IMG/VR virus record: IMGVR_UViG_3300013307_000671
Coordinates: 1 to 64,000 of that record
Origin: a virus
Taxonomy: Duplodnaviria > Caudoviricetes
Strand: one strand, 5' to 3'
Length of the DNA: 64,000 nt
Shown: one piece after another, positions 1,931 through 2,153 of the stretch
How positions within the stretch are numbered: the stretch's first letter is position 1
Layout of the letters: each line of letters opens with the position of its first letter
Position numbers and translations under genes: made by a program
The notes under the pieces: model-generated
What the model was told of the DNA's origin: nothing
Database searches by the model: none
The model's input: only the letters and a program-made list of their open reading frames with translations

Positions 1931-2153
1931 TGGTGTCCCCTGTTGGATTCGAACCAACGCGCATTGCTATTGAGATAACACCTTCTTTACTCGACCACGG
2001 AAACTTCCCGCCAAGGCTCTGTCATTGAGCTAAAGGTTTCCTACCGGAACCTTATCAGACTTTAACTGATACGCATCGATTAACGTAAATATCTTTTTAT
2101 CTCGCAACCACTGTCAACCACAGCCTTGGCTCTACCACTGAGCTAAGGGAGAC
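1931..2153 (-). ncRNA. 223-nt tRNA-like RNA with a large structured insert in place of the anticodon arm
   Basis: GTC(T)CCCT/AGGGGAC-A-CCA acceptor, GCTC-AGTGGTA-GAGC D arm, GTTGG-TTCGAAT-CCAAC T arm, multi-hairpin interior. Confidence 0.8.

Follow-up and report, generated by a model that had tools for sequence, protein, structure and literature searches.

Since T4 and T5, phage tRNA clusters have been known to contain stable RNAs without an assigned function. GenBank lists T5 RNA1, RNA2, and RNA3 as "tRNA-like stable RNA with unknown functions" (NC_005859), T4 rnaC and rnaD are the species 1 and 2 RNAs (NC_000866), and these cluster RNAs are 119-144 nucleotides (nt) long. A second point of comparison is YrlA (Rfam RF02553), which carries a GNCGAAN0-1G motif near its 5′ end, in the terminal stem, as given in an excerpt of Chen et al. 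(2014; PMC4201824), and one of whose hallmarks is a same-strand Ro60 (TROVE) gene no more than about 4 kb away. Here, we describe gene X, a 223-nt tRNA-like gene on the minus strand of a 64,000-nt stretch of tailed phage DNA (Duplodnaviria; Caudoviricetes). This stretch, hereafter the window, comprises the first 64 kb of the 134,908-bp IMG/VR virus record IMGVR_UViG_3300013307_000671, which is classed as "provirus" and is 64% complete.

X is a tandem duplication of two ~111-nt tRNA-like units that have swapped acceptor strands. Its parts are as follows, where RNA position p equals 2154 minus the window coordinate.

1931..2153, minus strand: gene X, whole, 223 nt; full-length homologues at L016:1846-2068 and L017:5546-5763
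2146..2153, minus strand: 5′ strand of the outer acceptor stem (p1-8), which has a bulged U at p4 in both the window and L016 and is a clean 7-bp stem in L017
2129..2143, minus strand: outer D arm (p11-25), GCUC-AGUGGUA-GAGC; invariant in all three sequences and like that of CAU tRNAs
2111..2123, minus strand: extra hairpin A (p31-43), between position 26 and the rod; U32:A42 in the window is C:G in L017
2076..2107, minus strand: rod strand S1 (p47-78), consisting of UUGC, GAGAUAA, a 7-nt loop, UUUAC, a GUUAA bulge, and UCGA; pairs with S2, with two-sided changes at 56:177, 66:167, and 75:163
2054..2075, minus strand: inner variable loop UGCGU (p79-83) and inner T arm (p84-100), from the YrlA model alignment
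2033..2053, minus strand: tetraloop-capped inner acceptor stem (p101-121), with GGUA or AGUA as its loop and a single bulged A
2016..2030, minus strand: inner D arm (p124-138), from the YrlA model alignment; stem invariant, loop AAUGACA in the window and L017, AAUGGUA in L016 and run variants
1998..2010, minus strand: extra hairpin B (p144-156), the unit B counterpart of hairpin A; retained in L017 despite an indel
1964..1994, minus strand: rod strand S2 (p160-190), consisting of UCGA, GUAAA, a 7-nt loop (3 nt in L017), UUAUCUC, an AAUA bulge, and GCAA
1931..1963, minus strand: outer variable loop UGCGC, outer T arm (p196-212), acceptor 3′ strand (p213-219), and encoded ACCA; 93% match to CAU tRNAs

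The two ends of the molecule fold together into an outer tRNA body with seven acceptor pairs, a GCUC/GAGC D stem, and the T arm GUUGG-UUCGAAU-CCAAC. When the features of the Rfam tRNA family (RF00005) were examined one at a time, this body showed an acceptor stem, a D arm, a T arm with its T loop, and a 3′ CCA. The family model itself gave only partial matches of 21.7 and 17.0 bits, below its gathering score of 29, and a 5-bp anticodon stem with a 7-nt loop was absent at the anticodon position, where the strands instead pair into a rod. No anticodon stem-loop was found anywhere in the fold, and ARAGORN at default settings made no call on X. X is without an anticodon and unable to read codons.

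The interior holds a second body. Beyond its T arm come an acceptor 3′ strand of 7 nt, a tetraloop, the acceptor 5′ strand that complements the first, U and A at positions 8-9, and finally a D arm; it is a circularly permuted tRNA body in which the tetraloop closes the acceptor stem. Between the two bodies lies a rod of 20 bp (4+7+5+4), interrupted by two bulges and a 7x7 internal loop, that is formed by UUGC 47-50/GCAA 187-190, GAGAUAA 51-57/UUAUCUC 176-182, UUUAC 65-69/GUAAA 164-168, and UCGA 75-78/UCGA 160-163. The rod arises because the "anticodon regions" of the two units pair with each other, placing the two elbows at opposite ends. In all three full-length sequences, the tertiary pair 15:48 is G:C for the outer body and A:U for the inner one.

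Each unit runs in the same order: acceptor 5′ strand, D arm, C26, an extra hairpin of ~20 nt, rod strand, UGCG(C/U) variable loop, T arm, and acceptor 3′ strand. Alignment of unit A (p1-112) with unit B (p113-223) gave 66 identical positions among 108 aligned, with a score of 68 against 21.4 ± 7.7 (maximum 46) in 500 shuffles. Acceptor pairing crosses between the units, the 5′ strand of A with the 3′ strand of B to make the outer body with its ACCA, and the 3′ strand of A with the 5′ strand of B to make the GGUA-closed inner body. Identical helices appear in the minimum free energy (MFE) fold of the window copy (ViennaRNA), in the MFE fold of L017 alone, and in RNAalifold. The L017 copy also folds better than its shuffles (z -3.09; 1 of 200 shuffles equals it).

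An earlier reading made from the letters alone, here called the sequence-only reading, had described a 223-nt tRNA-scaffold element running from 2153 to 1931 on the minus strand, with a multi-hairpin interior. In outline this was right, with the ends being a tRNA body and the interior a conserved structure, and all of the helices it listed are present (GAGAUAA/UUAUCUC, UUUAC/GUAAA, UAUCAG-UUAAAGU-CUGAUA, AGGUUCC-GGUA-GGAAACCU, and GCUC-AAUGACA-GAGC). The fold is more regular than it described, however, and both the second, permuted body and the swapped tandem duplication escaped it. The hairpin whose 7-nt loop it called "anticodon-like" is the inner T arm, the GGUA hairpin is real but is the closed acceptor stem of the inner body, and the "second D arm" is indeed a D arm, belonging to that same missed body.

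A single metagenome scan yielded two full-length homologues. L016 is 94.5% identical to X and lies at a locus where the neighboring gene Y is absent and the gene Z present, while L017, 83% identical, sits among other genes on a 215-kb contig. Alignment A2 holds all three full-length sequences found (window, L016, and L017), and its structure of 62 pairs in 12 helices is paired in 98.9% of 184 pair cells. Nine pairs, spread over seven helices, have changed on both sides with pairing kept. None of 500 shuffles matched the X structure in percentage paired, count of double changes, or covariation score, and when pairing partners were slid by 1-3 columns as a control, 38-45% of cells paired and 0-2 double changes were counted. 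The changes include outer acceptor pairs 5:216 and 6:215, which are C:G in the window and U:A in L017, and two outer T-stem pairs, G:C and U:A in the window, which are A:U and C:G in L017. In the inner acceptor stem, U105:A117 becomes C:G in L016 and in contigs of all four runs examined (U105>C together with A117>G), and C118>U in L016 and run X4 makes a G-U pair. Compensatory changes in relatives thus show that the design of X has been kept.

Variation within the inner body also identifies its T arm. The inner T loop reads UUAAAGU in the window and L017 and UUCAAGU in L016 and in contigs of the four runs. Inner-body positions p91 and p132-133 (window 2016-2075, minus strand) change together: a GAC D loop accompanies UUAAAGU in the window and L017, and GGU accompanies UUCAAGU in L016 and the four runs. 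In tRNA numbering these are elbow-pair positions 19, 20, and 56. At 19 and 56 of the inner body, L016 and the run variants carry G and C; the window and L017, which are otherwise only 83% alike, share the A19/A56 combination, a non-standard pair.

The surroundings of the L017 copy add a further observation. Among the 15 open reading frames (ORFs) that flank X there, only two match the window's record at all, one of them an overlap with tRNA-Leu. Because X has been kept at 83% identity in L017 while the flanking genes are mostly unshared, selection appears to have acted on X. In public sequencing runs, 20 rows from 17 studies contain at least part of the stretch; missing cover over parts of 1600-2300 in some runs was not read as evidence. 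Rows with small shares and rows labeled as single organisms were left aside, and no conclusion on habitat or host is drawn from them.

Other searches yielded little. In a blastn comparison of X and the tRNA cluster with 50,697 GenBank phage records, only tRNA arms matched, and the interior of X was unmatched both there and in L003, the sole locus returned when IMG/VR was searched with the 5′-nucleotidase alignment, which has Arg-Met-Leu tRNA triplets and no X, Y, or Z. The flanking 7.9 kb gave a single 74-nt match to the same phage records. A pattern search of IMG/VR with the "anticodon-like" hairpin returned 12 loci, none of them a relative by blastn; in 6 of the 12 (L004, L006, L008, L011, L012, and L015) the hairpin with loop UUCAAGU was read as a T arm belonging to a tRNA or tRNA-like gene. 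Two further pattern scans of IMG/VR gave no matches, two scans of GTDB genome contigs gave none and none, and an IMG/VR search by the neighboring NMNAT protein gave none. Model R1 matched L008 (18.5 bits) and L015 (15.4 bits), which are tandem tRNA genes and not relatives of X; an excerpt of the YrlA paper (PMC4201824) describes tandem-tRNA false positives of this kind.

X is followed by two further odd tRNA-like genes, Y and Z, in series within a tRNA cluster, with gaps of only 3 nt (X-Y) and 7 nt (Y-Z).

3173 down to 1512, minus strand: tRNA cluster in the order Arg(UCU), CAU (Ile2/Met), Leu(UAA), Arg(UCU), Met(CAU), then X, Y, Z, then Leu(UAA), from ARAGORN and Rfam
1848..1927, minus strand: Y, 80 nt, a tRNA body of Leu type; its variable arm is long and its anticodon arm is CUCC-GAGA-GGAG (4-bp stem, GAGA tetraloop); 3 nt downstream of X
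1706..1840, minus strand: Z, a 135-nt tRNA body in which a ~59-nt three-hairpin insert replaces the anticodon arm; 7 nt downstream of Y

Y is an indel polymorphism: the window and DNA contigs of runs X2, X4, and X9 contain it, and an 87-nt skip takes its place in L016 and in the RNA contig of run X15. Z scores 47.2 bits with the Rfam tRNA model, with a 74-nt insert; two of its insert hairpins are capped by UUCG and UCCG tetraloops. The ends of Z are closest to Arg tRNAs of L003 (86-95%) and also match Val- and Asn-type tRNAs. Between the window and L016, Z shows just three differences, too few for covariation.

The cluster is made of repeated Arg(UCU), CAU, and Leu(UAA) tRNA genes both in the window (1512-3173, minus strand) and in L003 (10532-17055). 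The window is counted as having three Arg(UCU), two CAU, and two Leu(UAA) copies, and L003 has 11 tRNA genes. The tRNA repertoire of both phages consists of these three species only, all reading A-ending codons.

Evidence of expression comes from run X15, an RNA library of 71 M letters. A 594-nt contig at a depth of 494 spans 1706-1840 and 1928-2300, is unbroken in X, and carries Z and X together, and 60-mers at 2017-2083 occur at a depth of 1171-1665. Among the joints listed for this run none crosses the X insert, and the only one skips Y. Since Y is also absent from L016, the Y gap in the X15 contig is read as a strain difference and not as splicing. A ~300-kb genome present as DNA at the depth seen in X15 would need more letters than the run has, so the signal is read as RNA, and abundant. 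X is apparently transcribed with its insert included and unspliced, and at high abundance. A promoter and terminator scan found one promoter-like site inside X against 4.6 expected and was disregarded.

The ends of X point to its origin. The sequence-only reading had likened them to the Ile2 tRNA at 2835-2910, and the likeness holds: identity to this CAU tRNA of the same record is 90% over the last 29 nt (2835-2863), and the match to three CAU tRNAs of L003 reaches 93-95%, at 2149-2129 and 1959-1931. X derives from a CAU tRNA and Y from a Leu tRNA, of both of which the phage has several copies, and such an origin hints at a possible link with those tRNAs.

Taken overall, X is best explained as a stable, non-decoding RNA of two tRNA-shaped bodies that works by tRNA mimicry, a reading to which we give a probability of roughly 60%. 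The two-bodied architecture itself is very probably correct. The mechanism, in which X binds proteins that recognize the shape of tRNA, is put forward more tentatively, at somewhat less than even odds. The outer body, with its 7-bp acceptor stem and encoded CCA, would offer what RNase P and the 3′ processing enzymes need, and host RNase P and 3′-end enzymes could cut X, Y, and Z from the cluster transcript as they do tRNAs. The same body would protect X, which might then be as stable as a tRNA. Thus released, X would present two tRNA elbows at the ends of a rod, together with one CCA end, to proteins that read shape and not anticodon, and could act as a decoy or sponge or, like Y RNAs, as a tether. 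Recognition by the isoleucyl- and methionyl-tRNA synthetases depends on the anticodon. As X is without an anticodon, it cannot decode, and its recognition by these two enzymes is unlikely.

We further hypothesize that X belongs to a class of phage RNA not described before: a tandem tRNA, pseudo-symmetric and domain-swapped, with elbows ~20 bp apart. Phage tRNAs are known to counter tRNA-cleaving host defenses. Such an RNA could serve as a bivalent decoy or clamp for a host factor that recognizes tRNA, for example a tRNA-targeting defense nuclease or a processing or modification enzyme, and together with its anticodon-less neighbors Y and Z it could shield or regulate the phage's rare-codon tRNAs (Arg-UCU, Ile2/Met-CAU, and Leu-UAA). 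By analogy with M. smegmatis YrlA, for which such cleavage is reported, RNase P might also cut at the inner 7-bp acceptor stem, which would leave a two-piece RNA. This fuller proposal is a speculation that we regard as possible and rather doubtful.

Several observations weigh against the two-bodied mimic. First, the covariation comes from just three full-length sequences and the variant tables of four runs; two of these sequences share 94% identity, and a single lineage, that of L017, supplies most of the double changes. Second, the window copy does not fold clearly better than its shuffles (z -1.61; 12 of 200 as good), and the outer acceptor stem of the window and L016 copies carries a bulged U. 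Third, inner positions 19 and 56, which form the G19:C56 pair in tRNA, are both A in the window and L017, and the inner elbow of the window copy may be noncanonical. Fourth, the relative G001 (341 kb, 97% complete) is without X, with no match to model R1 in the whole record, which makes X dispensable in that lineage. Finally, contigs cannot reveal the ends, strand, or processing of an RNA, and no binding partner of X was identified.

The strongest alternative is that X is a Y RNA in the strict sense, in which the inner body and rod dock a Ro60/Rsr-type ring protein of phage or host and tether it to a factor such as PNPase, as do YrlA and Thermus phage Yrl RNAs. The inner order of T arm, acceptor stem-loop, and D arm is what defines the tRNA-like domain of YrlA in the excerpted account (PMC4201824), and phage Ro60 proteins with phage Y-like RNAs are documented in an excerpt of another study (PMC12135203). 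The sequence GGUCG at p158-162, in rod strand S2, is present in all three full-length copies and resembles the Ro60 contact motif, given as GGUCCGA or GNCGAA in the excerpt of PMC4201824. The exact GNCGAAN0-1G motif is absent, however: p159-164 read GUCGAG in the window and L016 and GUCGUG in L017, 3′ of the inner body and not near the 5′ end, and CGAA occurs only in the outer T loop. With the YrlA model, X reaches 18.1 bits where the gathering score is 69, and the alignment is confined to the tRNA-like part. Nor was a protein partner found, as the 134.9-kb record (64% complete) has no TROVE match, none lying near X, and no Ro-like family appeared among 15 distinct ORFs (10 larger ones searched against Pfam and 10 against PHROGs, 5 of them in both). 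We consider a strict Y RNA unlikely.

It is less likely still that X is evolutionary debris, left by two tandem tRNA genes or by a tRNA gene struck by recombination or duplication, and transcribed with the cluster without any function. Its ends do come from a CAU tRNA and its halves are duplicated, the acceptor stem is bulged, the window copy has lost G19 and C56 of the inner body, the neighbor Y comes and goes between strains, and G001 does without X. Decay would not be expected to leave nine two-sided pair changes with pairing kept, nor 83% identity in L017 where the neighboring genes are unshared, and the crosswise acceptor pairing and the rod are unlike what results from the decay of two tRNA genes.

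The sequence-only reading had also noted a 9-bp pairing between GCCAAGGCU and AGCCUUGGC (24-32/136-144) and proposed from it a switch or pseudoknot, in which this helix competes with both D arms and toggles X between two folds. The pairing is indeed perfect in the window, and pair 27:141 is A:U, G:C, and G:U in the three sequences; a local hairpin at p52-67 in unit A also fits the changes in L017, so that some alternative pairing is possible. Each relative nevertheless has two mismatches, giving 4 unpaired cells in 27 (85.2% paired), a figure that 364 of 500 shuffles equal, and the break recurs in run X4, where positions 28 and 140 are both G. A perfect helix of at least 9 bp arises in 14 of 300 dinucleotide shuffles of X, and in the rod model the two strands, which overlap both D stems, lie at opposite ends of the molecule. 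Each strand is the near-palindromic GCCNNGGC segment at the equivalent place in one of the two duplicated units, so their complementarity follows mostly from the duplication. The 9-bp helix is not counted as a feature of X, and a conformational switch is very improbable.

Least probable of all is a tRNA gene interrupted by a self-splicing or protein-spliced intron and giving a decoding tRNA: both ends do form a good acceptor stem, D arm, and T arm, and ARAGORN at a relaxed threshold proposes a tRNA-Leu(CAA) with a 148-nt intron, but no group I, group II, or other ribozyme matched at E ≤ 10 in Rfam, two of the five positions of the proposed anticodon stem are non-standard, the strand beside the variable loop pairs into the rod so that no single excision leaves an anticodon arm, the insert is retained in the X15 RNA contig, the sole joint listed for that run skips Y, and the interior co-varies as a structure of its own. 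Two further identities were rejected, that of a transfer-messenger RNA (tmRNA), which the sequence-only reading had already dismissed (3:70 is C:G, there is no tag frame, and neither ARAGORN nor Rfam gave a tmRNA match), and that of an integration scar, since the remnant without conserved structure that the same reading had imagined as its refutation is at odds with an interior that co-varies.

The phage that carries X appears to be large. A protein neighboring X has a 99%-identical copy on a 294-kb contig (protein search), and G001, the 341-kb record that holds locus L003, shares 69% protein identity with the window phage; together, these indicate that the window belongs to a giant phage. Beside the tRNA cluster (3398-6398, minus strand) lie genes for a cytidylyltransferase-like (NMNAT-type) protein, a 5′-nucleotidase-family protein, and a 7-bladed lactonase with a signal-like N terminus. 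The 5′-nucleotidase-family protein has 35 relatives by protein search, mostly from Logan assemblies, with 47-75% identity among the 17 in alignment A1.

Elsewhere in the window, a HEARO RNA (57526-57836, minus strand; 106.1 bits, over the gathering score) lies directly upstream of a gene for a 432-aa RRXRR + HNH protein (56144-57442, minus strand), and the two make up an IscB-type OMEGA nuclease locus in a phage. A TnpB/Cas12f-like ORF (1-579, plus strand; Cas12f1-like TNB domain, E 3.7e-11) is cut by the contig end, the record beginning within it. Two adjoining paralogous ORFs of ~610 aa (40472-44242, minus strand) have no Pfam or PHROGs family and no usable match in the Atlas, where the 614-aa ORF was searched. 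Small genes make up nearly all of the 134.9-kb record, which has just 18 ORFs of at least 280 aa, the longest of 614 aa.

How, then, does X compare with described RNAs? In Rfam it belongs to no family, with only sub-threshold partial matches to tRNA and YrlA, and the literature searched held no description of a phage RNA with two tRNA bodies. The nearest model is YrlA, whose positions 30-81 align to window 2071-2016 (18.1 bits, E 0.2 in a 236-nt search). According to excerpts of Chen et al. (2014; PMC4201824), YrlA resembles the inner body of X in its permuted variable region, T arm, closed acceptor stem-loop, and D arm, joined through the place of the anticodon stem, and both RNAs allow a G15:C48 or A15:U48 pair. 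Unlike YrlA, X builds a complete second tRNA body, encoded ACCA included, from its own ends and also has a 20-bp rod and two extra hairpins, and it has neither the GNCGAAN0-1G motif nor, in the DNA searched, an adjoining Ro60 gene. X is not a YrlA RNA by membership and shares with that family the permuted body only.

The T5 and T4 RNAs resemble X as non-decoding small stable RNAs that lie in a phage tRNA cluster a few bases from tRNA genes, a class defined by description only. Three of the four that were folded (T5 RNA1 and RNA2 and T4 rnaC) show a T arm, and a stem between their two ends encloses a non-tRNA interior; T4 rnaD has only a short closing stem and no T arm. None of these four folds contains the inner permuted tRNA body or the duplicated two-unit design of X. 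Similarity to X is limited to tRNA arms in the blastn comparison with phage records, and model R1 has no match in the T5 or T4 loci.

The tRNA-like domain of tmRNA shares with X a layout in which the ends form an acceptor and T-arm body with CCA, and the structured interior is reached through a long helix that stands in for the anticodon arm. X differs in having C:G in place of G3:U70, no tag reading frame, and no pseudoknots, and in keeping a full D arm. Set beside these RNAs, X is a clean, conserved, and apparently abundant case with a readable design, which carries all of a tRNA but the anticodon, twice, in one chain. It illustrates how tandem tRNA genes can evolve a new fold through a swap of acceptor strands, and it is a natural counterpart of the "tRNA scaffold" trick used in the laboratory.

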